From Patescibacteria group bacterium (GTDB lineage: Bacteria > Patescibacteriota > Microgenomatia > CAYGWK01), in contig JBMORX010000010.1 of NCBI GenBank assembly GCA_049322615.1, forward strand, positions 25,416 to 89,415: DNA of 64,000 nucleotides, in the 5' to 3' direction. Made by a program: the position numbers and the translations under genes. Shown one piece after another: positions 36,843 through 59,900 of the stretch. Within the stretch, counting starts at the first letter, position 1; the number at the start of each line of letters is the position of its first letter. A model generated the notes under the pieces. That model did no database searches and had not been told where the DNA came from. It saw nothing but the letters and a program-made list of their open reading frames with translations.

Positions 36843-37187
36843 TTGCCGAAGCTTTTTTATTGCGCAAATTAACGGGTCAGGGACGTTACGAAGCTTTACG
36901 TCCCGCTGACGATAGTTCCCCGTCTAACGGGGGCGAAAATAGGTCGAGGCCGGAGGACTTGAGCGCAAAAACTTATCCCGTTGAACCGCGTGGTCACGCG
37001 GCATGGGACTTTGCGCGGCGCTTCAAAGACGTTATTCCGCTTACAGGGATATTGTTTTCCTCCCCCAAAAGGGGTAAAATTAAAAAAATCCTAAAAAGAA
37101 AGAAGGTTGAGATGGGTGGGAAAAACAAAAGTATCACAAGAAGCAAAAGTATCACGAGTATCACGGGCTAAAAAAGAACCCCAGACA

Positions 37188-40913: not shown

Positions 40914-40979
40914 AGAATTGGATCACGATTGAATCGTGGTGGATTTTCCCCAAATGTTTTCTTTTTTCCTCTAAATCTT

Positions 40980-42149: not shown

Positions 42150-42270
42150 AGAATAAATACCAATTAACCAATTATCCAATCAACTAATTATCCAATTTAA
42201 GATTTGTTGATTTGCTGATTAGATGATTAGTTGATTTGTTCCCCTTTTTGTGTTATCAATTTAATACTGA

Positions 42271-43356: not shown

Positions 43357-43692
43357 AATTAGAGAAATAAGCAAATAAGCAAATAAGCAAATAAGCAAAT
43401 AAGCAAATGACAAATATCAAATTATAATTTGTAATATTTGTTTATCGCGAAGCGACAAGTTTTGCTTATTTGAGATTTGTAGTATTTGCTTATTCTTGTG
43501 GGGCCTATAGGTAAACGGTATACCGCACCCTTCGCATGGGTGAATTCCGAGTCCGATTCTCGGTAGGTCCACCACGTAATCCCGCCTCTGGCGGGAAACG
43601 TGGTAGGAACGTTTTCGCCAAAGGCGAATTACGTTCCACCCTTCGTCGGGGGCATGCCCCAGACATGCACCCTTAATTCTTGATTTTAATTC

Positions 43693-43721
43693 TTGACATT
43701 TTTCTGAGCCAATGTTATCCT
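43693..43721 (+). promoter_or_regulatory. sigma70-like promoter (TTGACA-17-TATCCT) followed by the palindrome CAGCGTTACGTAACGCTG
   Basis: tcTTGACAtttttctgagccaatgtTATCCTc; palindrome at 43728-43745. Confidence 0.5.
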
Positions 43722-43761
43722 CTTTGTATCAGCGTTACGTAACGCTGTAACAAGAGAGGGG

Positions 43762-44292
43762 GTGAAGAGAGTGAGGAGGAGTTTTGAACCAAGAGAAAAA
43801 AGATTAGAGAAATTATCAAAAGAGCAACAATTAGATTTAATCTTTGACCTTATCAATGCCTTTAGTTTAGTAAGAAATCCTTACGAGACGGCTCTTTTAA
43901 TGGAGGATCTTTTGACCGCTGATGAGGTAAAAGATTTGGGCAAGAGGTTGCGCATCGCTAAGTTATTGCTTTTGGGGAAAACCCAGAGAGAGATTTCCGA
44001 AGAACTTCATTGTAGTCTGGCGACGGTGGCTAAAGTAAATTTGTGGCTTAACCAGAAAGGGGAGGGTTTTAAAAGAATTATTGCCAAATTGCCCAAAAAA
44101 TATCAAATGCCAAAGTTGCCTAGCCGACCTTTGACTTATCATTTCCCAGAAACATTAATAAGTTTAGCTTCCCATGCATTAGCCGTAAGACAAAAAAGAC
44201 AACTAGAGAATTTTGCTGACAAGATGGCGGACAAGGCCGTTATGGACAAATCGTTTCAAGAAGCAGTTGACGAAAAGTACCGAAATTCTTAA
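43762..44292 (+). CDS. TrpR-like YerC/YecD family DNA-binding protein (with an extended C-terminus)
   Basis: LLTADEVKDLGKRLRIAKLLLLGKTQREISEELHCSLATVAKVNLWL matches the YerC/YecD helix-turn-helix core. Confidence 0.6.
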   Translation: MKRVRRSFEPREKRLEKLSKEQQLDLIFDLINAFSLVRNPYETALLMEDLLTADEVKDLGKRLRIAKLLLLGKTQREISEELHCSLATVAKVNLWLNQKGEGFKRIIAKLPKKYQMPKLPSRPLTYHFPETLISLASHALAVRQKRQLENFADKMADKAVMDKSFQEAVDEKYRNS

Positions 44293-44388
44293 AAGAATTT
44301 TTTAAAAGATAGTCAGTTACAGTGTTACGTAACACTGTAACAAAGAGAGGTGGCGTTTGTGGTATAATAAATTGTGGCAGAATAATTT

Positions 44389-44464
44389 GGGCCGTTAGCT
44401 CAGTTGGTAGAGCGTCCCGATGGCATCGGGAAGGTCACCAGTTCAAATCTGGTACGGTCCACCA
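44389..44464 (+). tRNA. tRNA-Ala (GGC), CCA encoded
   Basis: GGGCCGT/ACGGTCC acceptor; anticodon stem TCCCG/CGGGA with loop ATGGCAT; T-loop TTCAAAT. Confidence 0.75.
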
Positions 44465-45040: not shown

Positions 45041-45208
45041 TTCGGAAAACTCAGAGAAATCGGTGTGTCAGAAAAATCAGATAAGTCAGACAGTCAGAGT
45101 GTCAGATTTTCTGAGTCTCTGGAATTCTGATTCACTGGCGCTCTGAGTATTCCGACCGCGTCTGACGCGGTTCCGAGTTTTCTGATCCTCTGACTCTCCG
45201 AATTAGGG
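45040..45208 (+). repeat. Repeat family A copy 3
   Basis: ttcggaaaactcagagaaatc..tcagaaaaatcagataagtcagacagtcagagtgtcagattttctgag..ttccgagttttctgatcctctga; contains the hairpin ccgcgtctgacgcgg. Confidence 0.75.
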
Positions 45209-47164
45209 TGTCGGGCTAACCTCTGGCTCGACTCCAGTTGGGAGGCTTAGAGGAGGCTTTATTCCTGGGGGAAGCGGCTGGGGTTGACTAAGGGTTTCTG
45301 ATGGTTTTTGCGATTCTTTTTCCGCCTTTTCTCCTAATTTTTTCTTTAGGGCTTCAAGTTCGGAATTTGCTTTAGTAAAGTCATCAGAGTCTTTAGGAAC
45401 CAGGGAAAGAGTTGTTTCCATTGCGGAAACTGCTTTCTCGTAGTCTTTCTTTTCCCTTAAGGCAGCCGAAAGATTATAATGACCGTTGGCAAAATTTGGT
45501 TTAAGGGAAACTGTCTGTTCAAATAATCTTTGCGCCTCATCCCAGTTCTGCAGACTAAAATAAACTCCACCTAGGGAAAGTCTCAATTGGGGATTTGCTG
45601 GGTCAAGGCTGATTGCCTGCTGATAGGCGGCGATGGTCCAAGAATCTGACCCTTGGGCAAAATTAATTAAGGAACGATAAATTCCCGCTAAGTTTTCCCA
45701 AGAAATTGAATTTCTTGGGTCTAAAGCGACGGCTCCCTTTCCCTCTCTGATTGCCTGCTGGACTAAAATTGAGATATTCTGCCTGTCTTGGTCTGATAGT
45801 CCGCCAGCTGGCGGATTTGCCGCCAGGGAATTGGCTAAAGCCAAGTTTGTTTGCGAATAGGTCAGCCGATAATTAACTCGATAAGGAGCAAGGGTGATGG
45901 CTTGAATTTGGAAATTATAAGTTTCTGTTCCCTTGTTTTGGGCTAAGGCATCCAAGGAGCGCTTAAAATAAACTTCGGCGGCATAGGCTCGACCGATAAA
46001 GTACAAAGTGGAGAGGGCGAAGAGTGAAGTGGGGACGAAGATCACCCAGGGCAGGATTTTTGATTCCTCGGAGTATTCTTTGGTTGGAAGGCTTGCGGCC
46101 AAAAGAGCAAGTAAAAAGTAAAAAGTAAAAAGTAAAAGAAAATTGGCAGGAAGGACAAAAAACAGGAGCAGAGAGACTAAGAGACTAAGATACAAAGTGC
46201 TCTTAATATCATAATATCTTAATATCTTAATCTCCTTTAATATTTGCCAGATTAACCAGAGAAACATTCCTAAACCAATTACACCAACTGTTGTCAAAAG
46301 TTGAAGATAGAAGTCCGAAGAGACCCCGAATTTAACTGCCCAAAAATCTGAAAGATTGAAAGCCAAAGGTCTTAGTTGATTGAAGGCGACAATAAAACTC
46401 GTTGGACCAACCCCAAAAAGGGGAGCAAATTTTAAGGTTTCAATGGCAATCTGCCAGCCGGTTTGGATTGGGAGAAGGAGGGGTCGGGCACTGGTAAGCA
46501 ATTGATAAAGAGAAACACCTAATCCACCTAAAATAAATACCAATAATACCAATAAATACCAATAAGTACCAATAGAGAATCGGCGTTGATCAGCTTTTAA
46601 ATCAGCGTAAATCCGCGTGATGGTAAGCACCAGCGCCACCACCAGAAAGGTCGCCAAAGGTAAAAGACCACCGGCTGGGGTAAAGGTTTTTTGAACAAGC
46701 CAGACGGGAAGATTCAAATTCCAGACCTTGGCAAATTCTAAGAAAGAGAAAATGCTAATAAGTGCCAGGATACTGGCACTAGCAATATAGCAATATAGCA
46801 ATTTAGCAATATAGTTTTCTTTGAGATTGTTAACAATGATGAAGTAGAGAAGAGTTAGCGCCAGAATCGTTCCCGCTCCCCCAGGGAGAATGAGGGCTTC
46901 GGCTTTATTTGGGCTGACCGCAAAGGTTGAGAGCAAAAAAGCGGCGGTAATGGCTAAAACTGGGAGATCAAATGGTGTTCTTCTGAAAACAACCTTCTTT
47001 TCAAGAACCATCTTCAAAAGCCAAACAATTAGCAATATAGCAACATAGCAATAAAGCAAGATATTTTTATTAAATTCATAAAATTCCGAAGTTATCGGCA
47101 GGAAAAACAAAGGCAAAAGAAAAACTAAGATAATAAGCCCCCAGTTTATGATTTTGTTAAGCAT
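45203..47164 (-). CDS. Polytopic membrane protein with C-terminal TPR repeats (O-antigen-ligase/Wzy-like + TPR architecture)
   Basis: About 12 TM helices over the N-terminal 400 aa; C-terminal TPR-like repeats (AIYRSLINFAQGSDSWTIAAYQQAISLDP.., AQRLFEQTVSLKPNFANGHYNLSAAL); Pro-rich tail. Confidence 0.55.
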   Translation of the reverse strand: MLNKIINWGLIILVFLLPLFFLPITSEFYEFNKNILLYCYVAILLIVWLLKMVLEKKVVFRRTPFDLPVLAITAAFLLSTFAVSPNKAEALILPGGAGTILALTLLYFIIVNNLKENYIAKLLYCYIASASILALISIFSFLEFAKVWNLNLPVWLVQKTFTPAGGLLPLATFLVVALVLTITRIYADLKADQRRFSIGTYWYLLVLLVFILGGLGVSLYQLLTSARPLLLPIQTGWQIAIETLKFAPLFGVGPTSFIVAFNQLRPLAFNLSDFWAVKFGVSSDFYLQLLTTVGVIGLGMFLWLIWQILKEIKILRYYDIKSTLYLSLLVSLLLFFVLPANFLLLFTFYFLLALLAASLPTKEYSEESKILPWVIFVPTSLFALSTLYFIGRAYAAEVYFKRSLDALAQNKGTETYNFQIQAITLAPYRVNYRLTYSQTNLALANSLAANPPAGGLSDQDRQNISILVQQAIREGKGAVALDPRNSISWENLAGIYRSLINFAQGSDSWTIAAYQQAISLDPANPQLRLSLGGVYFSLQNWDEAQRLFEQTVSLKPNFANGHYNLSAALREKKDYEKAVSAMETTLSLVPKDSDDFTKANSELEALKKKLGEKAEKESQKPSETLSQPQPLPPGIKPPLSLPTGVEPEVSPTP

Positions 47165-47530: not shown

Positions 47531-50500
47531 TTATTTAATTGTCATCCCCTCGACCGTAACTCCGCTTATATTCATATCTCCAGTTGCCAGATTAACTGTT
47601 TGGGTCATACACCAATCAGAGCTGCCACCACTAACTTCTGCTCTAACTCGATATTGATAAGTATGACCTGAAGAAACGTTGGTATCAGTATGAGAAGTAC
47701 TGTCAATTGCCTTGTCTATCAAAAAAGTAAATCCTCCACTATCGGTATTCTTTTCAATTCGATAACCTGTCTCAACCGCGGTATTGTCCTGCCATTTAAC
47801 TATCAGCTGACTTGGTTGACCGCTATCATCAATCAAACAACCTGTTGGTGGGTAAAATGAAGCGGTGGTAAAAGAATAAACCGGAGACTGGGTGGTACTC
47901 CAGATATTTGAACCGCCTGGATCAATCGCATAAGAGCGCCAATAATAGGTTGTTAGGGGAGAGAGAGCCGATTGAACAGTATAAGTCGCTTGAGTGCCTG
48001 AAGTGTAAGCAGTTCCTCCTTGGGTATTCTGACCCGACCAGCCAGTTTGAGAAGAGGTTTGGTCAAAGGTTTGGCAATTTTGAGTCATTCCAGAGTCGGT
48101 ACAAACTTGAATTTTATATCTTAGGTAATCGCTTTCGGTATCAGTGGCGGTAGTTTTCAAAGCAGGAGTTAGACTAACATTGGTGGCAGCGTTAGTTGGT
48201 GAATCCAAACTTGGCGTATTCGGACGATTGTTGATCGTGTAGTTAATAGTGACACTGGTAAGTTGGGGAGAAACTTGAGTGTCATTGGTGGAAAGAATGG
48301 CGCGATATTGAATATAACGATTAGCTGTCGAGGAAATAGTTGAGCCTCCCGGCGTCGTGAGATAGTTGGTATTTGAGCGGAAATCATCAAGGTACATGGT
48401 AAAACCTTCGGAAGCATCCAAAATTCGCAACCCTAGCCTAACAATGGCATTCCTGTCGGCAACGGAAACATCACCAATATCCCAATATTCTCTTTGCCAT
48501 TTGAAAACATCGGCATCAGTAGAGTAGCCGCCAGAAGGGGCAGTTCCCGACCAGGAAGAAACGGTGACCAGTCCTGAAGAAATTGAACTTACCTCTCCTT
48601 GCATAATATAGAGAGTGCCATTGTAATTTTCTCGGACAATGACGGTGTCGCCTTTATAAAGCCCGGTGGTTGAATCAGGGGTGAATTGGGTGTCCGAAGT
48701 TGAAGTCGGACCATCGGAACCAGCGGTGGTGACAAAATCAACATTTACCTGATGCGTTCTCAAGCTATATTGATAAGCCAGGCGGATTTCCTCAGGCGTG
48801 CGGGCGGTATTAGAGATGCGGACTTCGTCAATAATTCCTTTATAAAATTGAGTCATACTCCCATTATTATTAGCCGCTCCTATAGAAGCATTTGTGACGA
48901 CGAGGGCATTTCTTGAGGTTGTATCACTACCGATTTGATTGCTATCCAGGTAGAGTTTTCTGTCGCTGGCACTTGATTGAACAAAAGCCACATGATGCCA
49001 TAGACCATCGGAGACACTTTGAGAATAGGTAATAATACTACCGCCTGTTCCGCCACTGTCTCGATACCAAACTCGAATCCCACCATTGGTTGAAGGATTG
49101 TCTCCGTAGTAAATAATAAAGAGGTTATTGGACCAGTTTGCCGGGGTTCCCTCTGAGTATACGACCGGAGCAGTGGTGAAGACGCCTAATTCCGCTTTTG
49201 CCCAAAACTCGACTGTATAAGCAGTGCCTTCGGTGACTCCAATATCAGGGAGTCCAATATAGTCATTTAATCCATTAAAATATCTTCCATTACCAATTTT
49301 TCCTTGGGTAATGGTATGCTCTGGACCAGCATAATTACCTAAAGAGGTTAAAGAGCCATTGCTAATTAAATGGTTAGCGTAGCTTAAGGAGCCGGCATTA
49401 TAAATTACCTTTCTTATTGTTCCCGAACCGTTGGTAATGGCGATAGCATCAAAATATCCAGTTCTCGTTGAAGTGGTATCGTCCTCACAGGCAACATCAA
49501 AATAAGTAATTGTTTTGCCAACGTGACCACTTGGTAAGGCGATTTTTCGGTGGTACCATTTCCCTAGAGCCTTGGCATCGAGATCGGTATTAGGATGGGC
49601 ATTCAAGTTATTTTGATCAACAACACCGGCATCTCGAAGAGTTGCTCCATCAGAGGTGGTGTAATCAAAGGCGATCTTGTCAAGCGAAGCTGTCCAATAA
49701 ATATCGTATTCAAGATAATCTCCTGACTGAATAACATAGTCGGCAACTCCAGTTAAATCAATATAAGCATAGGAGTTTCCCGAGGCAGTCATCGAATAAA
49801 CAGTTCTTAAAGAATTATAGGAAGTGCCGTCATTATTGTTTGCTGAACTGTCGTCAAGATTAGTGGATTGGTCATCTAAATGCCAAAGACCCCTAGTGTT
49901 GGTATCTGTTCCATAAACCGAATGGTCCGTTTCCCCAATATAGGTTTCGGCAATGGTTCCTTGACGGTCAGCAGCAAAATAAAAGGGAACTTTGGTTTTG
50001 CCTGAAAGATCGGTTGAGGAGATGGTTTTTTGTAATCGATGGTCTCTTCCTGCCCGATAGGCTTCGGCAATTTCCTCGGCGGTCATCGCCGTCGCTTTGA
50101 CAAATGGTTCATCGATAATGCCGTCGAAAAACGAGGCAGGGGTGGAGGTCATTGACGCCCCAATTCCAAAAGAACCAGTGTTGTCGAAGATACCTGAAGA
50201 ATAAGAAGTTGTTCCGATTAATGCCCCATCAAGATAAATTTTTAAGGCAGAACCATCATAAACTCCGACTGCCAAATGCCATTGGTAAGTGGGAACGGCC
50301 GAAGTGCCCGAGACGCCGGCGAGGGCTGTTCCGTTTGAGGAGACTAAAAAATCTAGAGAGCCGTCGGCTGAACCCGAACAGGCGCCACAAACATAAAGAT
50401 AGTAACCATATTGTCCAGAATCTCCACCTTTGGTGACAATCGAATGGTCGGCGTCAGTGTTGGCATGGGGGTAAACCCAAGCCCCGACTGTCCAGCCACC

Positions 50501-53386
50501 ACTACCGGTATAGTCGAGTTTGGTTGTTCCTCCGCAATTTCCATCGGTACAAGAAAGATATTGACTTGAACCGGAAAATTCCCTGGCGCTTGAGAAAAAT
50601 CCGCTGTTGGTGACGGTTGCCCCGGTTGGGGTGAGGTCATTATTTAAGGAAGTTTCATCTTGAATATAAGCACTCGACCCTCCTGTTTCTTCTAAGTGCC
50701 AAAGACCTCGGGTATTGGCGTCTGTTTGGGGAGCGCCGACAGTGGATTTTAAGGAACCTGTACCTTCCATTTTAATCGTTGATTCATCGGTTTTGGTAAG
50801 CATCGTTGTACTTGAGGTTGACCAATTAGTGGCATCTGAATCCATTGAGGCAATAGCAGTTTCATTGGTGATTGGTCTCCACTCTTCCCAAGTGGAATTG
50901 TCAGCCGAGGTTCGGGTCTGAAATTCCACATCCGCCCCAACCCCGGCAACAGGTTCGGGAGAGGAGTATTGGTGGACCCTTAAGTCATCAACATAAAAAG
51001 TCGTAGTTCCGCCCCAATAGCCCTGAACCCTTATTTGGGTAATGGTTGTAATTTGTCCCGTAAGAGTTCCTACTTGGTTTCCATCTATAAAAAATGTTAT
51101 CTCACCAGTAGATTTCATCCTAATAGCAAATTTATGCCAGCCAGTGGTTCTAGCAACCGTTGTGGCAGTATAAGTGAAAGCTGTATTGTGATATACATAG
51201 TTAGTAGAAGAGCTATCTGTCCAAACTCCAATCCCAACTGTATTGGTGCCATCATATAACCGAATCACCTTAAAGGCGGTGGTGTCCGAGTCATCATACA
51301 TATCAAAAGTAAGATAAATATTGGGAGTAGTAAATGCCTTATAAGCCGTTATTGAGGTATCCACTGAGTTTGTCTGGACGAGCTTGCCGCTATAGCTACC
51401 TCTTTTTGCCTGCTCGGTTGAAGCTGACCAAGTGCCGGCAGTTGGATTGAGAACAGTCCAATCGCTAACATCCCCATCCTCAAAATTATCCCAAAAAGGG
51501 AAAGTAGCCGAGCCATTACTTCCGGTGCTGGCTCCGGAATTTCCATACCACATAAAGATAGTCGTAAAGGAACTGGCGGTGATTGAGTCCACCTCCACCC
51601 AAACCTTTGCCCAGGCGCCATCGGCTTTATCTTCAATCCAATAATCAAGACTTGTTCCTGAAGAATTAGTAAAGCGCAAATCATCAAAGTCTGTTTGCAT
51701 ATTGGAGTCATAGTCAACGTTGACTTTGACTTGATAATTAGTCAAAGTGTTGGAATTTTGGGTATTATCAATAATCACCGGTTTGTAGTTGCTCCAGCCT
51801 GGAAGTGAAGCGCTTGAAGAAGCAGTATCACTCCAAGATAAAGAATCAAGACTGGTAACTTTTGAAGTGCCGGAGGTTAGGTCAATTGAATCAGAAGTGT
51901 GGATTCCATAAGGAAATCTTTGGGCATCCTGGCGAATTTCCTCAGGGGTGCGGGCGATGTCAGAGATGCGGACTTCGTCAATTACACCATTAAAATAATC
52001 GCCACTATACCAAGACGCTTTACCAATTGTCGGGGCAGTGGTGTCTTGAGACAAGGCAGACGCAGTTCCAGTACCTGTCAAAATTCCATTTATATAGATT
52101 TTTATACTTGAACCATCCCAAGTGCCAGCAAGATGGCTCCATGTTCCGCTTGGAAGGGCAACCGTACTTGTTGCAGATGGGCATGTTGATGGGGTGCAGA
52201 TATTAAAAAATGGAATACCGCTACTTGTTACTTCTAATTTATAACCTATCCAATTCCCGCCATACTTTGAAAAAATAGCACAATTGGTATCGGCCCCTGT
52301 ACAGGTAAAATTAGTTGGTTTTACCCAGGCTTCAACAGTAACCGCTGATGTAGGTTTTAGTGAAGAAGAGTCAGAGAAAGAAATATAATCACTTGAACCG
52401 TTAAAACTCCGGGCATTGCCGAATTTGCCGGTGGTGACATTAGTGCTACTTGCTGATGTGCCGGTGTTTGAGTTTCCAGAGCTATCGGCGACAGTGGTGG
52501 TTCCTGAACTTTCATTCATATGCCATAATCCTACGGTCCGAATATCGGCTGCAAGTTCATGGTAGGGAAGCTCAAGTTTTGGCGAGGAGCCGGAACCAGC
52601 ATCGCTAATTCGATTGAAGGTGCCGGTGGAGAATTCAGAAGAGGTATCGTGGACGACCGAAGGGTCAATAATAACCGGATATTGGCGAGCCGGATGAGAA
52701 AGCCAGTCTGAAGAAGGCGAGATGATAATCTCGTAAGACGTAGAACCAGAAAGACTTGAACGCGAAACAACGCGGAGTTCAACCTCGGTGCTTCTGGCGC
52801 CCGCCGCATCAACCATAAAAGGCTTGGGAATATGGAAGCGATATTGACCATCTTGGGTGTCAATAAAGTAAGTTGAAACTCTGCCATCTAAGGATTTCCT
52901 TGGCACCGCATTCTTTAAATTAAGCGCGAATCTAAATTGCTTAATTGCTAGATTGCTAGATTGCTGATTGCTGAGAATAATTTCTTCCTTAATGCCTTTA
53001 TCGTTAAGCGAATATTTAATATCAATTCCCGGCTGGATATCTTTATAAAGAAGTGAGCTACAGTTCACCTCCGAGGTGGAAGAGGCTCCGCCTTCGGCGG
53101 AGAGACACCTCGGAGGTGGATTTCCAAATTCGGCAGGAGAAAATTCTGCGGACGAGTCTTCTTGTTCAAATTTGACTTTGGGTTTGTTTTCTTGAAGCCT
53201 ATCTCCCAGATATACTGCGAAATCTTTAGATATATTTTGATAGAGATAAGAGGTGGTTGGGGGAGCAGGTGATAATTGGGGGACAGAGGCTTTTTTGGGA
53301 GAAGGCTTAATTACGGAAAAAGCTATAATAATTATAATTATTATAATTGTTATAAATTTTATAATCTTTATAATTTTTTTCTTCAT
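47531..53386 (-). CDS. Giant secreted/surface protein (1951 aa) with LamG/concanavalin-like and FN3-like domains
   Basis: N-terminal signal anchor MKKKIIKIIKFITIIIIIIIIAF; three copies of the LamG-type core (SIKIYINGILTG..FNGVIDEVRISDIARTPEEIRQ; LKIYLDGALIGT..FDGIIDEP; KLYLDSNQIGSD..YKGIIDEVRISNTARTPEEIR); Ser/Thr-rich; FN3-like region near the N-terminus. Confidence 0.7.
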   Translation of the reverse strand: MKKKIIKIIKFITIIIIIIIIAFSVIKPSPKKASVPQLSPAPPTTSYLYQNISKDFAVYLGDRLQENKPKVKFEQEDSSAEFSPAEFGNPPPRCLSAEGGASSTSEVNCSSLLYKDIQPGIDIKYSLNDKGIKEEIILSNQQSSNLAIKQFRFALNLKNAVPRKSLDGRVSTYFIDTQDGQYRFHIPKPFMVDAAGARSTEVELRVVSRSSLSGSTSYEIIISPSSDWLSHPARQYPVIIDPSVVHDTSSEFSTGTFNRISDAGSGSSPKLELPYHELAADIRTVGLWHMNESSGTTTVADSSGNSNTGTSASSTNVTTGKFGNARSFNGSSDYISFSDSSSLKPTSAVTVEAWVKPTNFTCTGADTNCAIFSKYGGNWIGYKLEVTSSGIPFFNICTPSTCPSATSTVALPSGTWSHLAGTWDGSSIKIYINGILTGTGTASALSQDTTAPTIGKASWYSGDYFNGVIDEVRISDIARTPEEIRQDAQRFPYGIHTSDSIDLTSGTSKVTSLDSLSWSDTASSSASLPGWSNYKPVIIDNTQNSNTLTNYQVKVNVDYDSNMQTDFDDLRFTNSSGTSLDYWIEDKADGAWAKVWVEVDSITASSFTTIFMWYGNSGASTGSNGSATFPFWDNFEDGDVSDWTVLNPTAGTWSASTEQAKRGSYSGKLVQTNSVDTSITAYKAFTTPNIYLTFDMYDDSDTTAFKVIRLYDGTNTVGIGVWTDSSSTNYVYHNTAFTYTATTVARTTGWHKFAIRMKSTGEITFFIDGNQVGTLTGQITTITQIRVQGYWGGTTTFYVDDLRVHQYSSPEPVAGVGADVEFQTRTSADNSTWEEWRPITNETAIASMDSDATNWSTSSTTMLTKTDESTIKMEGTGSLKSTVGAPQTDANTRGLWHLEETGGSSAYIQDETSLNNDLTPTGATVTNSGFFSSAREFSGSSQYLSCTDGNCGGTTKLDYTGSGGWTVGAWVYPHANTDADHSIVTKGGDSGQYGYYLYVCGACSGSADGSLDFLVSSNGTALAGVSGTSAVPTYQWHLAVGVYDGSALKIYLDGALIGTTSYSSGIFDNTGSFGIGASMTSTPASFFDGIIDEPFVKATAMTAEEIAEAYRAGRDHRLQKTISSTDLSGKTKVPFYFAADRQGTIAETYIGETDHSVYGTDTNTRGLWHLDDQSTNLDDSSANNNDGTSYNSLRTVYSMTASGNSYAYIDLTGVADYVIQSGDYLEYDIYWTASLDKIAFDYTTSDGATLRDAGVVDQNNLNAHPNTDLDAKALGKWYHRKIALPSGHVGKTITYFDVACEDDTTSTRTGYFDAIAITNGSGTIRKVIYNAGSLSYANHLISNGSLTSLGNYAGPEHTITQGKIGNGRYFNGLNDYIGLPDIGVTEGTAYTVEFWAKAELGVFTTAPVVYSEGTPANWSNNLFIIYYGDNPSTNGGIRVWYRDSGGTGGSIITYSQSVSDGLWHHVAFVQSSASDRKLYLDSNQIGSDTTSRNALVVTNASIGAANNNGSMTQFYKGIIDEVRISNTARTPEEIRLAYQYSLRTHQVNVDFVTTAGSDGPTSTSDTQFTPDSTTGLYKGDTVIVRENYNGTLYIMQGEVSSISSGLVTVSSWSGTAPSGGYSTDADVFKWQREYWDIGDVSVADRNAIVRLGLRILDASEGFTMYLDDFRSNTNYLTTPGGSTISSTANRYIQYRAILSTNDTQVSPQLTSVTINYTINNRPNTPSLDSPTNAATNVSLTPALKTTATDTESDYLRYKIQVCTDSGMTQNCQTFDQTSSQTGWSGQNTQGGTAYTSGTQATYTVQSALSPLTTYYWRSYAIDPGGSNIWSTTQSPVYSFTTASFYPPTGCLIDDSGQPSQLIVKWQDNTAVETGYRIEKNTDSGGFTFLIDKAIDSTSHTDTNVSSGHTYQYRVRAEVSGGSSDWCMTQTVNLATGDMNISGVTVEGMTIK

Positions 53387-53946
53387 CTTGATTTTCCTTT
53401 CTTAAACTCTAGTCTTTTTCTAAACAGGTTTTCTCTAAATCCGCCCTCTTTGATAAATCTTTCCTCGGTCCAGCGGAGTTTTTGGTCTAACAGAGAGTTG
53501 GTTTGGTTGATAAGACAGATTAGGGTGTTGGCGGCCGTCTCGGGAGATTTCTGAATATAAATTTTATAATCTTTATAACTTTTATAATTTTTATAGGCGA
53601 TTCTTCGAATCGCCAGGGATCGAGGATCGTCTTTCAGCCAAAGAGTAAGTCCTCTTTGTCTTAAAAAATCTAAGAAGTCGTTTAGAAGTTCTTCGTAGGA
53701 GCCCCGAGAAACTCCTAGCATCTTTAATCTCCCTTCAACGCTTTTTTGGAGGTAGCCCTCGGCAATGCACTGTTTGCCGGATCTTGCGGCTTGAGTCATT
53801 TGCTCTTTTTGGCGAAGAGAGCGGATATAGCGGTCGCAAAACTCAACCGTTCCATCGTAAACAATCTCCGCCTGTTGGAAGAAGGGAAGGGTTTTATAAC
53901 CGCTAGGTTTCAAACTCTGCTTATAACCTTTATAATTTTTATCCAT
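53383..53946 (-). CDS. Four-helix-bundle protein (TIGR02436-like, the '23S rRNA intervening-sequence protein' family) with an N-terminal Tyr/Lys-repeat extension
   Basis: MTQAARSGKQCIAEGYLQKSVEGRLKMLGVSRGSYEELLNDFLDFL matches the family's xQxxRAAxSxxxNIAEGyxR...ARGSxxEL pattern; N-terminal YKNYKSYKDYKIY repeats. Confidence 0.55.
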   Translation of the reverse strand: MDKNYKGYKQSLKPSGYKTLPFFQQAEIVYDGTVEFCDRYIRSLRQKEQMTQAARSGKQCIAEGYLQKSVEGRLKMLGVSRGSYEELLNDFLDFLRQRGLTLWLKDDPRSLAIRRIAYKNYKSYKDYKIYIQKSPETAANTLICLINQTNSLLDQKLRWTEERFIKEGGFRENLFRKRLEFKKGKSR

Positions 53947-53947: not shown

Positions 53948-56900
53948 TTAATTTATTATCCACCAGTTAAACCTTATCTCTTGGTCAATTGGGGTATCAA
54001 TTCCAACCTTAAACCATTCGCCAGATTTCTTGGCCGAAACGTACAAGACCTTATTTTGAGTATCTGAAACTGGAGTAAGATAAACTAAAGTATTTTCGCT
54101 GACTTTTGGATTAAAAATTGTAAATTCAGTTGAGCCCGCAGGTAAAATTCCCAACCCCGAGGTGGCGTTAGTTCGGATTTCTGCCAGGCTTGCCGATTGG
54201 GTAGCCGAGTAATCGGCGGCAATGACCAGAGAGGCAAATTGGGCTGAACCCGAAGCATCGATTGAGGCGACGGTCTCCCCAAGCGGGTTTTGAATCGCCA
54301 AGAGCTTGCCAAAAGCAGATTCTTCTGGGGAGGTCGAACCTCCGGAGAGGTTCGACCTCTTAAGGACTAAACCAGAAGCCGAGATCTCACCGCCGACTGC
54401 CAGATTGCCGGCGACCTGAACATTGCCATCGGTATCAATCGTCATCTTTCCTGCCAGAATATCAACTGGTCCCCAACCAGAGGACTGAAGACGGAGGACA
54501 GAAGACGGAAGAGAGTTGATACCCGTGCTGTCGATAACAACTGCTCCATCAACCATTAATTGTCCAGCCACAGTCGTGTCAGCCAAAGAGGTTCGGCCTA
54601 AAACCTTTAAGTTTGCGGTGATTTTCAGGTCAGAAGAAGGATCGGTGATTGGCCAAGATTGAGTCTCAGCTAAAAGACTGCTTGCAGTTGCGGTTTCGTT
54701 GGCATATGATAGAGTTGGCGTGGGGTTGGCAGGTTGGCTGGATGGGCTTGTCAAGCCACGTCCATCGGGTTCAACTCCCGACAGCTCCACGCCCTCTTGA
54801 GATTGGGACTTGACAGGCGTGTTATTATCTGTTATATTATTGTCAAGCTTGACAGGCCCATCTATTAGCGAACTTGCTGGACTTACCAGAGCCGCTTCAT
54901 TTGAGGCGGTTTTTTGGTTCTCGAGATTTTCTAACCTTGCCAATAATTCTCCAAAGCTGCCCCTTAAGGCGCTTATTTCTTTAGTTTCTATCTTGTCCGC
55001 GTAGAGGGTGCCGGAAACCGTCGCATCTTGGGTTACTTGTAACGTCTCACTTGTCACCTGTCCGGCGAAGCTTGCTGAGCCGGAAGAATCTATACTCGCC
55101 ACCGTTTCTCCTTGCTCATTCTGAACCAGAAGCTTGCCGAAGCCAGATCCTTCGGAGGTCGAACCTCCTTGGAGGTTCGACCTCTTAAGGGAAATCACGA
55201 TTTCCGAAGAGTCTGGTAATGGTGAAATAATTCCAGTCTCAACCACCGGCGAGATAATCTTCTTCTCGGCGATTAATCTTTGTCCAAAAATCGTTCCTGC
55301 TTCGTCAATTGAGGCAATGGTTTTACCAAGAGAGTCTTTAATCTCAAGAACTTTTTCAGCTACATCAACTGCCTTCTTGGTGTTAATAACTACCTTATTT
55401 AAAGTGGCTACTCCCAATTCGTCAATTAACCAATTGCCGTCCGTTGATTTAATAGTCTTAGTCACTATTTCCTGGGCTTGTATTTGTTCCTCTGGTGGTG
55501 AGTCTTGGTTCCAAGAGAGATTGGCAAAGGCGGTAACTTCTCCTAGGGCATTGATGTCTCCATTGGTTTCAAAGGGAGAAAGGGCGATTCCGATAGTTCT
55601 TACTTTACCGGTCGCCTTCATTGCCCGACCCGGGACAGGTGAGGCCGTCAAGAAATCGCCTCTTTTGATCGAGCCGCCAATTCCAGAAACCTTAACTGGA
55701 ACACGACCCGCAAGAGCAAGAGGATATTTAAATTTAGCTTCGGGCATATCGCCGTCAAGAGTTATAGCGGGCGCAGTCGAAATAATACCCAAAACATCCC
55801 CTTGATTAGCCTTTGTAGTCCTTACCAGGTTTTCGTTGTTATTTGGGTCAACAGCAACTAGTTCTCCCGGTTCAAGGGGCATACTAGCGGGAAACATTTC
55901 TGCTAAATCAAAACCGTTAGATAGACGACAACATTGAGCATACCAACCCGGATTACAAGTTCCGGGGCAGGAGCCTCCCCCTGAAACAGAGGTACATTTA
56001 TAAGTGGTGGAAATATTACTACAAGCAGTATTCCCGGTTATACCATTGCAATCTGCGGAAGTTGTACATTCAATATTTAACGCCGTACCACTTTTTCTTA
56101 TTTGACCAGTAAAGTTAATATCTCCGGAAACATCTAATTTATAGGAGGGCCCCGTCGTCCCGATGCCGACGTTGCCGTTCATATAAATCTTACCTTCACT
56201 ATCTACAATTTCCCCATAACCCGCATGCTTATACATCTGAATGTATGCACCAGCAGTACCTTCGTACAATCTTAATTTCGCTTCGCTACCACTTGTAGAT
56301 GTTCCAGCAACAATGTCCCCTGCAACTGCCAATTTAAAATTTGAACCAAGATTATTCCAGATATTAGAACCAACTTGTGTGAGATACGCTGGACTCGTCG
56401 TCCCGATGCCGACATTGCTACCATCCAGAGTCATTACATTCGCAACACCGAGATTAGTGAAAGTCAATTTACTACTTAAATTTTCGATTCTCCAGGTTTT
56501 TCCTGCGGTAGAGTTTGTAAGGTCCAGTTGGACATCGCCAGCACGTTCAATATCTAAAGCAACTGTTGGACTTGTCGTCCCGATTCCGATATTGCCAGCG
56601 TTGGTAATTCTTAGCCTTTCTGTTGCTCCGGCGTCGCCTCCAACCGAGGTATAAAAAGCCAAATCGCCAGCGTTTAAGGTATAAATCTTGGAAAGTCCGG
56701 AAGTGGGGAGAAGAGTAAGATTGGGGGTGCCGGAAATTGAGGCAATTCCACCCATCGTTAAATTGCCAACATTAATTAAGTTGTCACTTGCAAGAGAAAT
56801 ATTATTTGAGGCAGCGTTAATGGTAATATCTCCTGAACTATTGCTAATTAAAGATTGGGCGCCGCCAACAGTCAAACTTCCACTTTGGGTGGAGGAACCG

Positions 56901-59900
56901 CCGGCATCCAAAGACCATTTAGAAACACCATTATTTTGAATATCAAAGAGTTTCCTGCCAGTAGAGAGAGTATTTGCGGTATTGAAAAGATAAGCAGTAT
57001 TTGAGCCGGTATCAGCCACCGTTGAAAGCAAGGTTAATTGTCCGCTTGCGCCAATGGTAAAAGAGGTATAATTTGAGGCATTGTAGGCAAGCCTTAATTG
57101 CTCGGTTGTCTTTAAGACCTCCAAAAGAGCGTTCGGTGAAGTCGTCCCGATGCCGACGTTGCCGGCGACTAAAAGGGAATTGGTGGAAGCGGCTGGGTCT
57201 AAGAAATAGGCAGTATTGGCGGTATCCACAAACCGAGCGGCATTAACATAGTTTGAAGAATCAATCGTCACTCCGCCGGAATTAAAAGAAGCGGTTCCGG
57301 TGGTAGTAATATTGCCGGCATTAGAAATTGTAAATCTGGGGGTGCCAGAGGAGGAGGCGGTAAAGATGTCATTTACTGTTCCGGTTTCATTTAGGATGGT
57401 CAAAGCCTTGCCGGTGGTAGTGCCATCAACATGAAGTTTGGTTAAAGGAGAGGTGGTGCCAATGCCGACGTTGCCAGAAATATACGTGTTGTGTGCCAAA
57501 ATCCCGTTACCGACAAAGTTATGAGTCCCCTCAACCTCTATGTCATAAACTTGTTCTTCTCCTACATACTTAATGGATTGGATTTTGTCCCACACCACAT
57601 ATGGTTCGGAGTTCGAAGAGCGAAGATCGGAGAAAGAAACGGTAGCGATAGAATCGCCAGGCTGGAGATAGATTACTTTTGACCAGAGGAGGTTTTGAGA
57701 TAATTGATGAGGCTGGTAATCATTTTGCGAATCTGATGGGTTTGTCCCAACAGAGGCTTGATTTGCTGTTCCGTCAGATAGCCTAATTCCACTGCCAGTC
57801 TGAGACAGGCTACTACCTCGAAGAGGCTGCCTCTGGCTTGATAGAGAAACTGGATAAACTCTGTCTTGTGATACCTGCCCGACCCCTCGGCTAGGTTGAG
57901 GAGAATCGAGACCACCGCTCTCCTTAACTGATCCGCCAGACCATACTGTTCGTGTTTGGGAAAATTCGTAATCAGTTGATAAACTGCCTTGACTAAGATC
58001 ATAGTCTTTTTCCAAACCTCCAGTTTCTCGAAGTTGAACTCTTCGTTGGTATTCATCATAAGTTAATTGTACCAGATAGGGATGGTTACCAGTAGTTCTA
58101 ATTTCTTTGCCGCTTTCAGTCTTGAGCTTAAAGACTGGTTTAATCCCCATGTCCAAAAGTTTGTTAATCTTCGCTGGTTGAACTTTACCTGTCTGCTCAT
58201 TCCTTGAGTAAACCAGTGTTCCTGGTTGAACATCTTTAATCTGAACTTCGCTCTTCGAACTTCGATCTTCAGAAACTTCACCTTGTTTATCTAGGTCTTG
58301 AGTAACAATAGAGAGGAGGGTATCACCGGTAACGCACTGACCTTCAACGTGAAGTTTCTGAACAGGCCCCGTCGTCCCGATGCCGACGTTGCCGCTTACA
58401 TATAAAATATTGTTCCCTGCCCCTGGACTTCCACCTACTCCAAACCCCCCGCTGGTATAGAATTGCCCCCACCCAGTCGAGTAAATAATACCCGCTTGAG
58501 TATTATCTGTACGAGTGCTTTCAATAAGAGCAGTATCTGAATCAGCCGCAAAATTCAATGCAGCATTATTAAACCCAGCGCCGATGATAACATTACCTCC
58601 ACTAACATGTAACTTCGCCCCCGGTCCCGTCGTCCCGATGCCGACGTTGCCGGAGGCTAATAACATCGTGTCACTGCTACGTCCACTCTCTCGAAATCCC
58701 AAACCGGCACTTGAGGTAATTCTTGCGTTATTGCTGTCAAAAGTCAGAATATTTCCATAGTTTAAGGTTTCAACACCTTGGGTAGTAACTGTCCAACGAT
58801 TAGCCGTCCCATCTGACAAAATCAGTGAGGGATTTGACGAAGAAGAATCCTGAACAACAAATCTCGCCCCCGGCCCCGTCGTCCCGATGCCGACGTTGCC
58901 GGCGTTAGTGATGGTCATTCTTGGAGTTAGTCCCGCATCTCCACCAACCGAGGTCTGGAAATCAAGCCTTGAGCCATTTAAGACATCAATCGTTCCTGGC
59001 GAGGTTCCTCGTAAAACCAAACTCCCTGAAGCCGAGGCATCTCCGACAATATCAAGCGAATCATCAGTCTTAAGCCAATTGGCGGCCGAGCGGTAAAGAT
59101 TAGTGTCAGTTCCAAAAGTAATTCCCGAGGCAGCGTCGCCATCAGTTGAGGCAAGTTGTAAAGAGTAAGTATCGGCATCAGCAATATAAAGACCAATATC
59201 AGTTGAGCCGCCAGCAGTTTGATTGCCAATGTAGATACCATAATTGTTGGAAAGGGTTCCGCCACCACTATTTATGGCATCACCAACATAAAAGCCGTAG
59301 GCGTTAGTTATTGTTCCGGTTGAGAGATTGGACCGACTGGTATAAAACGAATAGGCATTGTTAACTGTTCCATTAGAGGTGTTTTCTATCGAAGCATAAT
59401 TGCCGGCTGCTTGGGTAACAGTTCCCGAGCCGGCATGGATCGCCTTGGCGTTGGTTCCCCACAGGGCACCGATATTTTGCGCTCCCATTCCGTAAGCCTG
59501 TGCCTGGTGTCCATAGAAGTTGGCGGTTGAGGCGGAGGCTGGGTTGGCGACAGCTTCGGTGTAGAGAGCGGTTACCTCTCCACTGGTGTTTGTAAAAACT
59601 TCTCTAGACATTGTGGTTTTAGTTGTGTCAAAGAAACCGCCGGAGCCGAGGGCAACGTTGCTAGCAGCGAAAAATTGATCATCTGTTCCCAATCTGTTTG
59701 CCGCCGAGCGGTAAAGGTTGGTGTCAGGAGCCCCTGAACCTGAACCCCATCGAAGATAACCAGCACTTGCTCCGGTACCAATGACTTGAAAGTAGGCAGA
59801 ATTGGTGGCAGTTCCTCCAATTAAAAGATCATCAGTAATATTAGTGGGGGATAAAGCCCCGGCGTTTCTCTGCCAATATCCGGAGGTTCCTGTTCCCGGA

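Follow-up and report, generated by a model that had tools for sequence, protein, structure and literature searches.

A four-helix-bundle suffix gene with 9-nt repeat arrays between two giant genes of a Patescibacteria group bacterium: a candidate mobile cassette

Two giant surface-protein genes of a Patescibacteria group bacterium, found in a stretch of 64,000 nt (hereafter the window), hold between them a small gene for a four-helix-bundle (4HB) protein, and the same tataa-type DNA repeats occur in this gene and at the start of one of the giants. Does the small gene serve the giants, or is it an accessory element that resides beside them? The genes concerned are as follows.

45203..47164, minus strand: O-antigen-ligase-like membrane protein with a C-terminal TPR
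47531..53386, minus strand: downstream LamG giant gene, 1951 aa
53383..53946, minus strand: 4HB-suffix gene, 187 aa, pI 9.8
53948..63904, minus strand: upstream giant ORF, 3318 aa (N-terminal limit uncertain), with GNVGIGTT repeats
62974-62105, 61714-60797 and 58354-57485: three mini-inteins of the upstream giant ORF
57673..58059, minus strand: canonical TIGR02436 4HB ORF, 128 aa

The 4HB-suffix gene is, as the initial annotation had it, free-standing and 0-3 nt from both giants: its ATG (53946) lies 1 nt past the TAA of the upstream giant ORF, and its TGA shares 4 nt (ATGA) with the ATG of the LamG giant, whose Shine-Dalgarno-like AGGA falls within the last codons of the 4HB-suffix gene. The LamG giant itself carries three Laminin_G_3 stretches, DUF2341, Laminin_G_2 and fn3. 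The label "TIGR02436-like" stands as regards the 4HB family but not as regards TIGR02436 itself. The protein passes the NCBIfam model TIGR04258 (4helix_suffix, "four helix bundle suffix"; 60 bits, cut-off 40), a subfamily of the PF05635 superfamily, and falls below the curated cut-offs of TIGR02436 (22.3 vs 24) and PF05635 (23.7 vs 33.8). An identical sequence in NCBI is named [quoted passage not shown]; the gene is already named, and its TIGR04258 membership is known.

The gene is functional, and purifying selection on it is strong. It has 2160 homologues, the best 120 of which are 64-90% identical (several of these carry a TIGR04258-type name in their sources), and 284 clusters match the family at E <= 1e-30. 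Invariant core residues include Y118, Y124, Y127, K128 and Y130, and at the protein level the window protein departs from the family solely in N60C of the NIAEG motif and in a short N-terminal Y/K tail; the tails of homologues vary in length and are built from the same 9-nt unit described below. The family (median pI 9.4) combines an S23p/IVP/Avd-type bundle with an insert of ~35 aa and a basic C-terminal helix, and the AF2 model of the window protein (pLDDT 85.6; best Foldseek matches 2GSC and 2RLD) is laid out as follows.

Residues 1-14: disordered N-terminal tail
Helices 21-40, 44-66 and 70-97: helical-bundle core
Residues 100-134: insert with the Tyr motif
Residues 135-185: helix 4 and basic C-terminal helix

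The Tyr/Lys repeat YKNYKSYKDYKIY, which had been assigned to the N-terminus, is misplaced there: it spans residues 118-130, between helices 3 and 4, and the N-terminal end has only NYKGYK (residues 4-9).

A second 4HB copy had been reported within an intein of the upstream giant, and we recover it as the ORF 57673..58059 (125 bits on TIGR02436), which lies within intein 3 but is read in the +1 frame. Its start comes right after intein block B (TGNHPY), at the usual seat of a homing endonuclease domain, and an intein-nested 4HB copy is also kept in a Roizmanbacteria contig. In the loci L007, L037 and L095, canonical 4HB genes directly follow LamG genes. The two 4HB proteins of the locus proved unrelated to each other beyond family level: BLASTP between them gives E = 3.3, and the suffix-family profile reaches the intein copy only at E = 0.018. 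As far as their sequences tell, the two genes are related at the superfamily level only and do not share a recent origin.

The repeats of the locus are organized in three arrays of a 9-nt unit.

53921..53935, minus strand: 5' array, two TTATAA-NNN units, read as N-Y-K-G-Y-K (codons 4-9)
53894-53899, minus strand: extra single unit, G16-Y17-K18
53556..53595, minus strand: internal array, period 9, 4.4 copies (TRF), read as A-Y-K-N-Y-K-S-Y-K-D-Y-K-I-Y (residues 117-130)
53324..53375, minus strand: 3' array, period 9, 5.8 copies (TRF)

The 3' array begins 8 nt past the stop codon of the 4HB-suffix gene and so falls inside the LamG giant, which reads it in a different frame as codons 5-21 (IIKIIKFITIIIIIIII) of its signal anchor. 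That the 4HB gene and the LamG giant start have tataa-type repeats in common is borne out well past what chance allows: 23 nt, TTATAAAGATTATAAAATTTATA, are repeated exactly at 53556-53578 in the internal array and at 53351-53373 in the 3' array (0 matches in 100 shuffles). For TTATAA-N3-TTATAA, 0.01 matches would be expected in the 64-kb window; there are seven, which all fall at three spots (53921-35, 53564-87 and 53332-73).

The same layout recurs well beyond this locus. In 87 loci from many phyla, arrays mark the 5' edge of the ORF, lie within it and follow its stop by 0-30 nt, with period-9 repeats at all three positions in nearly every locus and an array density 50-150 times background. 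The consensus is NAT-RRG-WCN (TTATAA-NNN in the lineage of the window), a quasi-palindromic unit made of two short palindromes, TATA and GGWCC; Planctomycetota, Verrucomicrobiota, Desulfobacterota and other phyla have the three arrays with a G+C-richer unit. In the 5' edge and the 3' flank, a locus's own internal motif is matched 1.8-2.1 times per kb, vs 0.004-0.02 times per kb farther off. With a generic unit, a flank array is found in 50 of the 87 loci and an array in the suffix-coding body in none of the 87; with a strict unit, 37 of the 87 have neither flank array, and several filled cas4 junctions likewise have none. Since copies without flank arrays exist, the arrays are not indispensable.

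Inside the ORF, the array is read as Y-x-S/T across the family and as Y-K-x in the window, and the DNA unit is kept even in variants such as HETHETH, where Tyr is not. We compared codons in the motif with those in the rest of the same genes, in 69 loci with GC >= 42%. Tyr TAT:TAC stood at 210:23 in the motif vs 206:193 elsewhere (OR 8.6, p = 4e-25) and Arg AGG:other at 69:23 vs 122:1058 (OR 26, p = 2e-42), p-values that overstate independence because the counts pool related sequences. Ser, Asn, Asp, His and Glu codons of the motif are skewed likewise. The internal unit is thus conserved at synonymous sites, as a family-wide dual-coding motif. The flanking arrays are often non-coding or read in other frames by neighbouring genes: the first 3' unit frequently supplies the 4HB stop codon with its TAG/TAA/TGA, the cas4 start "MTYK" lies within the array in L012, L016 and L035, and in L037 both the stop of the upstream giant and the 4HB ATG lie inside an array. 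We found no paper that mentions the TIGR04258 family or its DNA repeats, and no published description of an array-bearing single-gene cassette.

We favor, with moderate confidence, the reading that the gene and its arrays form a mobile, array-bounded accessory cassette, in which the role of the arrays is conjectural. 4HB-suffix genes occupy at least 586 loci in species-level genomes of CPR, Planctomycetota, Verrucomicrobiota, Desulfobacterota, Nitrospirota, Bacteroidota, Chloroflexota and Acidobacteriota, and one Bathyarchaeia contig. Arrays are present at 9 of 26 filled vs 1 of 40 empty cas7-cas4 junctions (p = 6e-4; background 1.5%), and the position of the cassette also changes along a conserved backbone, which in the window is as follows.

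40929..44464, plus strand: conserved backbone, Rho to tRNA-Ala
40929-42149: Rho
42271-43356: LysM-M23 peptidase
43501-43574: tRNA-Ala(CGC)
44389-44464: tRNA-Ala(GGC)

On this backbone the cassette stands before the tRNAs in L022 and between them in L044 and L050, and the tRNA slots are without it in L047 and the window. The O-antigen-ligase-like gene is part of a block of conserved gene order that accompanies the cassette in the CPR loci L007, L010, L032 and L047. No recombinase, nuclease or other mobility motif was found in the cassette, and among phage records the family is without a match, among plasmid records it has a single one. Of the functional or mobility link to the giants that had been proposed, mobility is supported by the varying backbone slots and by the lack of arrays at empty sites; a link specific to giant proteins is not, given the PBP, ArgRS, Pth, S20 and YfhO genes that adjoin close homologues.

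Could the protein nevertheless be dedicated to the giants, made from their operon to serve in the cytoplasm as chaperone, as assembly factor or as regulator, with the repeats at the LamG start incidental? The gene is tightly coupled to both giants, and 4HB-suffix genes lie beside giant-gene homologues in seven CPR loci: the order g2-like gene, 4HB-suffix gene, LamG g1-like gene is found in L097 and L007, and a g1- or g2-like gene adjoins in L037, L010, L032, L046 and L027. Between L097 and the window the 4HB protein stays 90% identical while the giants fall to 48%. A product of at least 1300 aa is encoded right next to the gene in 6 of 69 loci, vs 6 of 784 genes farther away, and surface or glycosylation genes (LamG/DUF2341, NPCBM, YfhO) adjoin in L095, L096 and L098. 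On the cassette reading, too, residence beside the giants is old and conserved in CPR relatives; the synteny could reflect a locus-specific role. However, the position of the cassette within the CPR block varies, members 45-70% identical sit in type I-C and type I R-M systems, between tRNAs and beside housekeeping genes, and the basic character and Avd/S23p-like fold of the protein suggest a partner that is nucleic acid, not a secreted giant. Giant-protein loci are not the only ones that the family serves, and we consider a dedicated partnership unlikely.

Equally unlikely, in our judgment, is a defense accessory factor acting in CRISPR adaptation or restriction, of which the window copy would be a stray or an exapted member in a variable genomic island. 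Gene neighborhoods are strongly biased, toward defense as well as toward the CPR giants: the 4HB-suffix gene separates cas7 from cas4 in the type I-C CRISPR-Cas systems of ~15 of 80 genome loci, and is found directly upstream of cas4 in 26 of 66 metagenomic I-C loci, and in type I R-M operons in ~6 of 80 genome loci. Fic genes fill the same slot in other loci, and the literature already counts 23S_rRNA_IVP genes among those linked to cas loci and to adaptation (PMC3936711; PMC10910872, Fig. 6B legend). Against this, no CRISPR or R-M genes are found among the scanned ORFs of the window, many copies occupy housekeeping contexts, and a hitch-hiking cassette would likewise associate with defense islands.

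That the repeats are functionless low-complexity noise, born of A+T-rich codon bias and local replication slippage, is very improbable and is already contradicted by the array enrichment and the synonymous-site skew. Other short tandem repeats, with periods of 7-10, are indeed numerous in the window, coding regions included, and array copy number varies among close relatives (5.8 units in the window vs ~3 in L097). At 42.7% G+C, though, its A+T-richness is not extreme, the TTATAA-N3-TTATAA matches are confined to the three arrays of the 4HB-suffix gene, and the layout recurs in other phyla with a G+C-richer unit. An Avd gene of a diversity-generating retroelement, for which the giants would be plausible targets, can be set aside as scarcely credible even though Avd and the 4HB protein belong to one fold superfamily (PMC10053308), since the scanned window ORFs include no reverse transcriptase, a search for a template/variable repeat pair was negative, the suffix protein does not hit the Avd model, and the intein copy reaches only 39.5 bits on NF033474 (DivGenRetAVD), under its 80-bit cut-off.

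Returning to the mobile cassette, we propose that the arrays are its cis-elements. Because stop and start codons of neighbors lie inside the arrays, a cassette at an operon junction could leave translational coupling intact; in the window, the initiation region of the LamG giant would then be tied to the cassette, and the 3' array is read there as MKKKIIKIIKF, vs MRYNYKSHKFY in L097. One way in which they may act is mutual pairing: in the window, a long A-U helix is predicted between the internal and the 3' array, and it would loop out the suffix-coding segment and the LamG start. For the internal-3' duplex of the window z = -8.2, and these two arrays are paired in the MFE structure of 53310-53610 as well as in the centroid; the overall fold of the region is no stabler than shuffles (z = -0.88). 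Internal-3' or 5'-internal pairing reaches z < -3 in 21-22% of loci, and 5'-3' pairing, the geometry of a classical intervening sequence (IVS), is not general (median z = 0.13). The arrays may also be bound by the basic, ring-forming protein, conceivably one unit per subunit; with a palindromic unit, direct-repeat (protein-binding) and inverted-repeat (stem) readings look alike in sequence.

How does such a cassette compare with known systems? Like homing endonuclease genes, whether free-standing or borne by introns and inteins, it is a single-gene, patchy and well-conserved unit, and its fold, like those genes, is met in "safe" sites: rRNA insertions, the intein linker (57673..58059), tRNA spacers and gene junctions. 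Unlike them, the 4HB proteins have no detectable nuclease motif, and the intein copy is in a reading frame other than that of its intein; we know of no demonstration of cleavage or homing for the 4HB fold. In its way of working, it may be compared with TRAP and HutP, RNA-binding regulators whose rings recognize short repeats set at even intervals: their folds are unrelated, the periods differ (9 nt vs 5 and 7 nt) and ring-repeat binding is putative for the cassette, but a ring oligomer and three to six or more evenly spaced transcript repeats overlapping the initiation region of the regulated gene would be common to both.

Avd, a basic helical-bundle protein of the same superfamily (PMC10053308), is a pentamer that binds RNA encoded adjacent to its own gene (PMC6182149; bioRxiv 10.1101/2023.10.23.563531); the 4HB-suffix protein has in addition the insert and the C-terminal suffix domain, and the scan of the window ORFs gave no reverse transcriptase, nor was the repeat pair found. 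The 23S rRNA IVS elements of Leptospira, Coxiella and Xanthomonas encode S23p/IVP proteins of the same fold. There, PF05635 ORFs are the cargo of elements excised by RNase III, tandem heptamers of variable copy number stand just before the Coxiella ORF, and the element is regarded as selfish and sited where harm is small (PMC4990558). The cassette differs in residing at mRNA operon junctions rather than in rRNA, in a 9-nt unit that doubles as coding sequence inside the ORF, and in its lack of a general 5'-3' stem, with RNase III processing putative. In both, the ORF is bracketed by short repeated, self-complementary sequence, and canonical 4HB genes of CPR have IVS-like inverted arrays of period 7/8 on both sides. 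The cassette may thus be a relative of the 23S rRNA intervening-sequence elements, apparently spread by horizontal mobility.

The 4HB-suffix gene, a four-helix-bundle gene of the TIGR04258 family, sits tightly between two giant genes, the upstream one (g2) with a second four-helix-bundle (4HB) gene nested in it:

53948..63904, minus strand: g2, upstream giant ORF, 3318 aa, three intein splicing domains
57673..58059, minus strand: intein copy, 4HB ORF of 128 aa inside intein 3 of g2
53383..53946, minus strand: 4HB-suffix ORF, 187 aa
47531..53386, minus strand: g1, downstream LamG giant gene, 1951 aa, three Laminin_G_3 stretches, DUF2341, Laminin_G_2 and fn3

A single nucleotide separates the TAA of g2 from the ATG of the 4HB-suffix gene, whose own TGA overlaps the start of g1 as ATGA, in agreement with the gaps of 0-3 nt to both giants reported in the initial annotation. 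The gene had also been called TIGR02436-like. Its product passes the NCBIfam model TIGR04258 '4helix_suffix' (60 bits, cut-off 40, residues 135-180), and sub-threshold alignments and a structure model place this suffix domain C-terminal to a TIGR02436/PF05635-type bundle. It falls below the cut-offs of TIGR02436 (22.3 bits against 24, aligned residues 44-99) and PF05635 (23.7 bits against 33.8, aligned residues 29-97). Judged by these scores, the protein is a relative of the canonical TIGR02436/PF05635 families (23S_rRNA_IVP, S23p) at superfamily level only. An identical protein has an NCBI entry under the name 'four helix bundle suffix domain-containing protein [Patescibacteria group bacterium]'; as a gene it is an ordinary one with an existing name.

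An AlphaFold2 monomer model built with 25 homologues (pLDDT 85.6) predicts helices at residues 21-40, 44-66, 70-97, 108-120, 125-133, 135-166 and 169-185, and its top structural matches in the PDB are the pentameric S23p-family structures 2GSC and 2RLD, the former also matched by sequence profile (E = 0.004). Helix 2 of canonical 23S_rRNA_IVP/S23p proteins carries the motif R-x3-S-x3-N-x2-E (PMC3936711). Three of these positions line up in the window protein, S56, C60 (where most family members have N) and E63, while the Arg is shifted; Q52 is invariant and R55 adjoins S56. The protein is basic (pI 9.8; family median 9.4). Its Tyr/Lys motif, YKNYKSYKDYKIY, had been placed at the N-terminus but occupies residues 118-130, within the insert that separates helices 3 and 4, and the N-terminus contains NYKGYK only. 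Across the 25 homologues (64-90% identity), the motif consensus is AYNxYKSYNDYKIYI, with Y118, Y124, Y127, K128 and Y130 invariant and Y121 almost so, and some homologues carry an N-terminal tail of N/Y/K triplets of variable length.

The DNA behind this motif is repeated nearby. The suggestion that 'tataa' repeats recur at the start of the LamG giant was borne out by a 23-nt exact repeat shared between the internal motif (53556-53578) and the first LamG codons of g1 (53351-53373), with 0 matches in 100 shuffles. Period-9 arrays called by TRF lie at 53556-53595 (4.4 copies) and 53324-53375 (5.8 copies). Of the pattern TTATAA-N3-TTATAA the window has 7 copies where 0.01 would be expected, and all 7 are confined to three places:

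53921-35: 5' array, codons 4-9 of the 4HB-suffix gene
53564-87: internal array, inside the 4HB-suffix gene
53332-73: 3' array, LamG codons 5-21 of g1

Because the window has a G+C content of 42.7%, this excess does not reflect mere A+T richness.

The same arrangement extends across the family. In nearly all loci, TRF detected period-9 repeats at the 5' edge, at codons ~120-135 and 0-30 nt past the stop, and in many unrelated loci the internal-motif DNA reappears just beyond the ORF, so that gene and flanks have sequence in common. The consensus unit is NAT-RRG-WCN and differs by lineage: TTATAA-NNN in Microgenomates, TATAAGACC or ATAGGACCT in most phyla, and CATGAGACC or ATGGGACG in some Verrucomicrobiota and Lentisphaerota. 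As it consists of two short palindromes, TATA and GGWCC, direct arrays of it are also self-complementary. Among 87 non-redundant loci, windows matching the locus's own internal motif (>=20/27 identical) reach a density of 1.8-2.1 per kb in the 5' zone and 3' flank, compared to 0.004-0.02 per kb beyond 500 nt. The generic unit forms a 5' array in 37/87 loci, a 3' array in 23/87 and either in 50/87, and arrays of it in the suffix-coding body were found in 0/87. The 9-nt arrays are a cross-phylum signature of the family, of which our literature search found no published description; searches on TIGR02436, TIGR04258 and 'four helix bundle suffix' found no paper.

Codon usage shows conservation of the DNA itself. 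For 69 loci with G+C >= 42%, codons of the internal motif were set against those elsewhere in the same genes.

Synonymous codon usage in the internal motif and in the rest of the same genes; the p-values overstate independence because the pooled sequences are related
Tyr, TAT:TAC: motif 210:23; rest 206:193; odds ratio 8.6; p = 4e-25
Arg, AGG:other: motif 69:23; rest 122:1058; odds ratio 26; p = 2e-42

The same enrichment within the motif holds for TCN Ser, AAT Asn, GAT Asp, CAT His and GAG Glu. In some proteins (L071 and L076) the unit is read as H-E-T or H-E-S in place of Y-x-T with the DNA pattern retained, and motifs of lengths other than 14 aa are mostly longer by whole 3-aa (9-nt) steps (17, 26, 29 and 32 aa). 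By these comparisons, selection acts on the nucleotides of the internal motif. In the window the 3' array encodes MKKKIIKIIKFITIIIIIIII of the LamG signal anchor, whereas the homologous array of the closest informative relative, L097, is read in another frame as MRYNYKSHKFY, which argues that the DNA rather than the peptide is kept. An origin of the repeats by chance or slippage is contradicted by the flank enrichment, the synonymous skew, the generic-unit counts and the clustering in the window.

The arrays also reach into neighbouring genes. The first 3' unit often supplies the stop codon of the 4HB-suffix gene (TAG/TAA/TGA), the cas4 start M-T-Y-K lies inside the array in type I-C loci L012, L016 and L035, and in L037 the stop of the upstream giant and the 4HB-suffix ATG overlap within the 5' array. 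In the Saccharibacteria locus L032, 9-nt arrays at 2700-3020 and 3628-3760 run through the 3' part of the upstream giant and the start of the downstream gene, and are translated as (I-S/G-P)n linkers. By a relaxed two-unit pattern with a background of 11/741 random windows, arrays are present at 9/26 filled cas7-cas4 junctions versus 1/40 empty ones (Fisher p = 6e-4). By this comparison the arrays come with the gene, and the reading of them as pre-existing target sites is rejected, given that just 1/40 empty junctions has one.

Relatives of the gene are widespread, with at least 586 loci in species-representative genomes of many phyla, one archaeal contig among them, and 284 clusters at E <= 1e-30 in a library of 50%-identity representatives. 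We clustered the neighbour genes of 80 loci and scanned representatives of the recurrent clusters. About 15/80 loci have the type I-C order cas3-cas5c-cas8c-cas7-[4HB-suffix]-cas4-cas1-cas2, and ~6/80 are type I R-M operons. In a separate Cas4-seeded scan, 26 of 66 informative metagenomic I-C loci had the gene directly upstream of cas4 and 40 lacked it. In type I-C loci without the gene (L119, L124, L125, L133, L134, L136 and L137), the slot directly upstream of cas4 is filled by a Fic-family gene, followed by its own AATTAGGTAATAA-type repeats, and L126 retains an 84-aa remnant of a 4HB-suffix gene. An association with cas genes has been reported for the wider PF05635 family (PMC3936711; PMC10910872, Fig. 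6B legend), which is homologous to DGR Avd (PMC10053308) and is found in 23S rRNA intervening sequences (PMC4990558). It is possible, at a lower probability than the reading we favour below, that the protein is an accessory factor of defence systems; the cas and R-M neighbourhoods agree with this. As for homing endonuclease genes, presence is polymorphic at otherwise conserved sites: at the cas7-cas4 junction (26 filled vs 40 empty) and in the varying slots of a conserved backbone of other genes.

This backbone, Rho / LysM-M23 / tRNA-Ala(CGC) / tRNA-Ala(GGC) (window 40929-44464), is common to L022, L044, L047 and L050. In L022 the cassette, i.e., the 4HB-suffix gene with its 9-nt arrays, precedes the tRNAs; in L044 and L050 it sits between the two, and L047 and the window lack it in this stretch. 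The tRNA spacer is empty in L047 and in the window holds a TrpR-like HTH gene (ORF 43762-44292, between tRNA-Ala(CGC) and tRNA-Ala(GGC)) flanked by ~30-nt direct repeats (43731-43765 and 44321-44355) with the palindrome CAGCGTTACGTAACGCTG. A general tRNA association is rejected, as tRNA neighbours occur only within this block. Carriage on phages or plasmids likewise finds no support, with zero phage records matching the family and a single plasmid record, a Prevotella megaplasmid. Prevotella nigrescens FDAARGOS_1486 is a cultured carrier of a homologue (K8O81_RS09930).

A dedicated partnership with the giant proteins is also possible, again with lower probability. In L097 the gene order is that of the window (g2-like / 4HB / LamG g1-like), with the 4HB-suffix protein 90% identical and the giants only 48% identical to the window's. 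The gene adjoins homologues of g2 or g1 in L007, L037, L010, L032, L046 and L027, the O-antigen-ligase-like TPR protein (window 45203..47164) also recurs in CPR loci, and LamG genes are followed by canonical 4HB genes in L007, L037 and L095. Close homologues also lie between a pair of PBP genes (L081), ahead of ArgRS with a further two 4HB genes <6 kb away (L084), next to Pth (L085) or S20 (L092), and between NPCBM and YfhO genes (L095, L096 and L098). A neighbourhood bias of the kind raised in the initial annotation therefore exists, at cas7-cas4 junctions, in R-M operons and beside giant-gene homologues in CPR loci, yet recurrence by giants together with copies in unrelated contexts indicates that the gene is not dedicated to giant-protein loci.

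The intein-embedded 4HB copy is indeed present (125 bits on TIGR02436, above the cut-off). It lies within the third intein (58354-57485), in the +1 frame relative to g2, and starts directly after intein block B (TGNHPY), at a position that in inteins is normally taken by a homing endonuclease domain. The kinship implied for the two 4HB genes of the window goes no further than the superfamily: BLASTP between them gives E = 3.3, which rules out a recent duplication, and against the suffix-family profile the intein copy reaches E = 0.018. With this profile no further 4HB gene of the window was identified, and decayed 4HB remnants are absent, in every frame, from inteins 1 and 2. A Roizmanbacteria contig (L180) encodes a g2-like ORF, 60% identical across the same intein region, with a nested 4HB ORF (434-817) 72% identical to the intein copy. 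Substitutions between the two fall 32/23/54 by 4HB codon position, so selection follows the 4HB frame and the giant frame is there merely kept open. This closest homologue lies inside the g2-like ORF and has no Rfam match, which excludes a location inside rRNA. The giant surface-type protein is an unusual intein host, interrupted by three paralogous mini-inteins (60797-61714, 62105-62974 and 57485-58354), two of which come after the same repeated motif, GNVGIGTT...KLHVEGQ|C, and all of which end AHN|T.

Other parts of the window are also rich in repeats. The O-antigen-ligase-like/TPR gene (45203-47164, minus strand) contains non-triplet tandem repeats of period 7, 8 and 10 (46109-46137, 46201-46231, 46532-46574, 46780-46814 and 47026-47063), whose translations are hydrophobic stretches of the N-terminal part that presumably spans the membrane; CAATATAG x4.9, for instance, yields NILLYCYVAILLIV, and TAGCAATA x4.4 yields NYIAKLLYCYIAS. 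After the M23 peptidase gene, a AAATAAGC x6.6 array (43365-43416) has an inverted partner (GCTTATTT...) ~50 nt downstream, at about 43463-43495, making a long repeat-built hairpin, and many more intergenic arrays of period 7-10 occur, e.g., at 42159-42240, 21629-21735 and 26978-27051. The rRNA operon (features at 22676-25051, 23474-23703, 31503-35313, 35322-35993 and 36634-36851) contains a 16S gene interrupted by a group I intron and a 23S gene of enlarged size, with an ORF for a LAGLIDADG endonuclease at its 3' end; the full 5S is preceded by an additional, partial 5S copy, and repeat families D8, D10 and D12 connect the flanks of the 16S and 23S genes. Elsewhere are a cluster of glycosyltransferase family 2, radical SAM/SPASM, B12-binding radical SAM (three paralogues) and NAD-epimerase genes (80-12353), an IS200-like Y1 transposase (13207-13923) and a DUF4238 gene (18594-19544).

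A general stem between 5' and 3' arrays, like that of 23S rRNA intervening sequences (IVS), is not supported: the complementarity has a median z of 0.13 and is strong in only about 6 loci. Pairing of internal with 3' or of 5' with internal arrays at z < -3 occurs in 21-22% of loci. For the window, the internal-3' duplex has z = -8.2, and folding of 53310-53610 pairs these arrays in both the MFE and centroid structures, which places the suffix-coding part and the start of LamG in a loop; in overall energy this fold does not surpass shuffled sequences (z = -0.88). The related protein Avd forms a positively charged pentamer, and the RNA it binds is encoded adjacent to its own gene (10.1101/2023.10.23.563531; PMC6182149). 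A DGR reading of the locus is rejected, as no RT domain was detected among the scanned ORFs (5 of the locus and 20 others, mostly >= 250 aa) and the direct-repeat survey of the window gave no TR/VR pair with adenine-specific mismatches. Neither 4HB protein has a LAGLIDADG, GIY-YIG, HNH, His-Cys box or PD-(D/E)XK match in Pfam and NCBIfam, where 4HB families alone were hit. On the pairing data, the basic pI, the Avd precedent and the IVS-like arrays of canonical 4HB genes, we favour an interpretation of the arrays as cis-elements belonging to a mobile accessory cassette related to IVS elements; the arrays may act by pairing and/or as evenly spaced putative binding sites for the predicted ring protein.

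A broader and rather improbable extension is that S23p/IVP/Avd superfamily genes are autonomous selfish cassettes, comparable to homing endonuclease genes, with DGR Avd as a domesticated member. Each subfamily would carry its own arrays (suffix 9-mers, inverted 7/8-mers of canonical CPR genes, heptamers of the Coxiella IVS), which a putative ring protein would recognise to promote insertion, maintenance or excision at the RNA level, in places that do no harm: rRNA helices, intein linkers (57673..58059, conserved in the Roizmanbacteria relative), tRNA spacers and operon junctions.

The 4HB-suffix family is large, ranging from CPR bacteria to Planctomycetota and Bacteroidota, and recurs in CRISPR adaptation modules and restriction operons. 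A conserved, gene-linked and dual-coding 9-nt signature at its borders and centre, from whose units neighbours' start and stop codons are made, turns a 'hypothetical helical protein' into a testable unit with a defined protein, a nucleic-acid motif and junction effects, which would touch cas4-cas1-cas2 or, in the window, a giant surface-protein gene. For annotation, it accounts for odd Tyr/Lys/Asn tails and Ile- or Pro-rich stretches in neighbours as translated pieces of arrays. It also connects free-standing 4HB genes with DGR Avd and with the intervening sequences of 23S rRNA, which have long lacked an explanation, and thereby offers one common logic for the superfamily.

In comparison with known systems, 23S rRNA IVS elements lie inside a 23S rRNA helix, whereas the 4HB-suffix gene lies between two protein genes and on the other strand than the window's 23S rRNA (31503-35313). 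Canonical CPR 4HB genes have inverted 7-8-nt tandem-repeat arrays on both sides, the 5' array being the reverse complement of the 3' array:

L095, 10834-11226: canonical 4HB gene with inverted arrays, duplex z = -7.6
L087, 6331-6720: canonical 4HB gene with inverted arrays, duplex z = -5.4
L084, 2915-3322 and 8324-8722: canonical 4HB genes with inverted arrays
L007, 14586-14999: canonical 4HB gene with inverted arrays

These arrays recall both the IVS stem around its ORF and the heptamer repeats before the Coxiella S23p ORF (PMC4990558).
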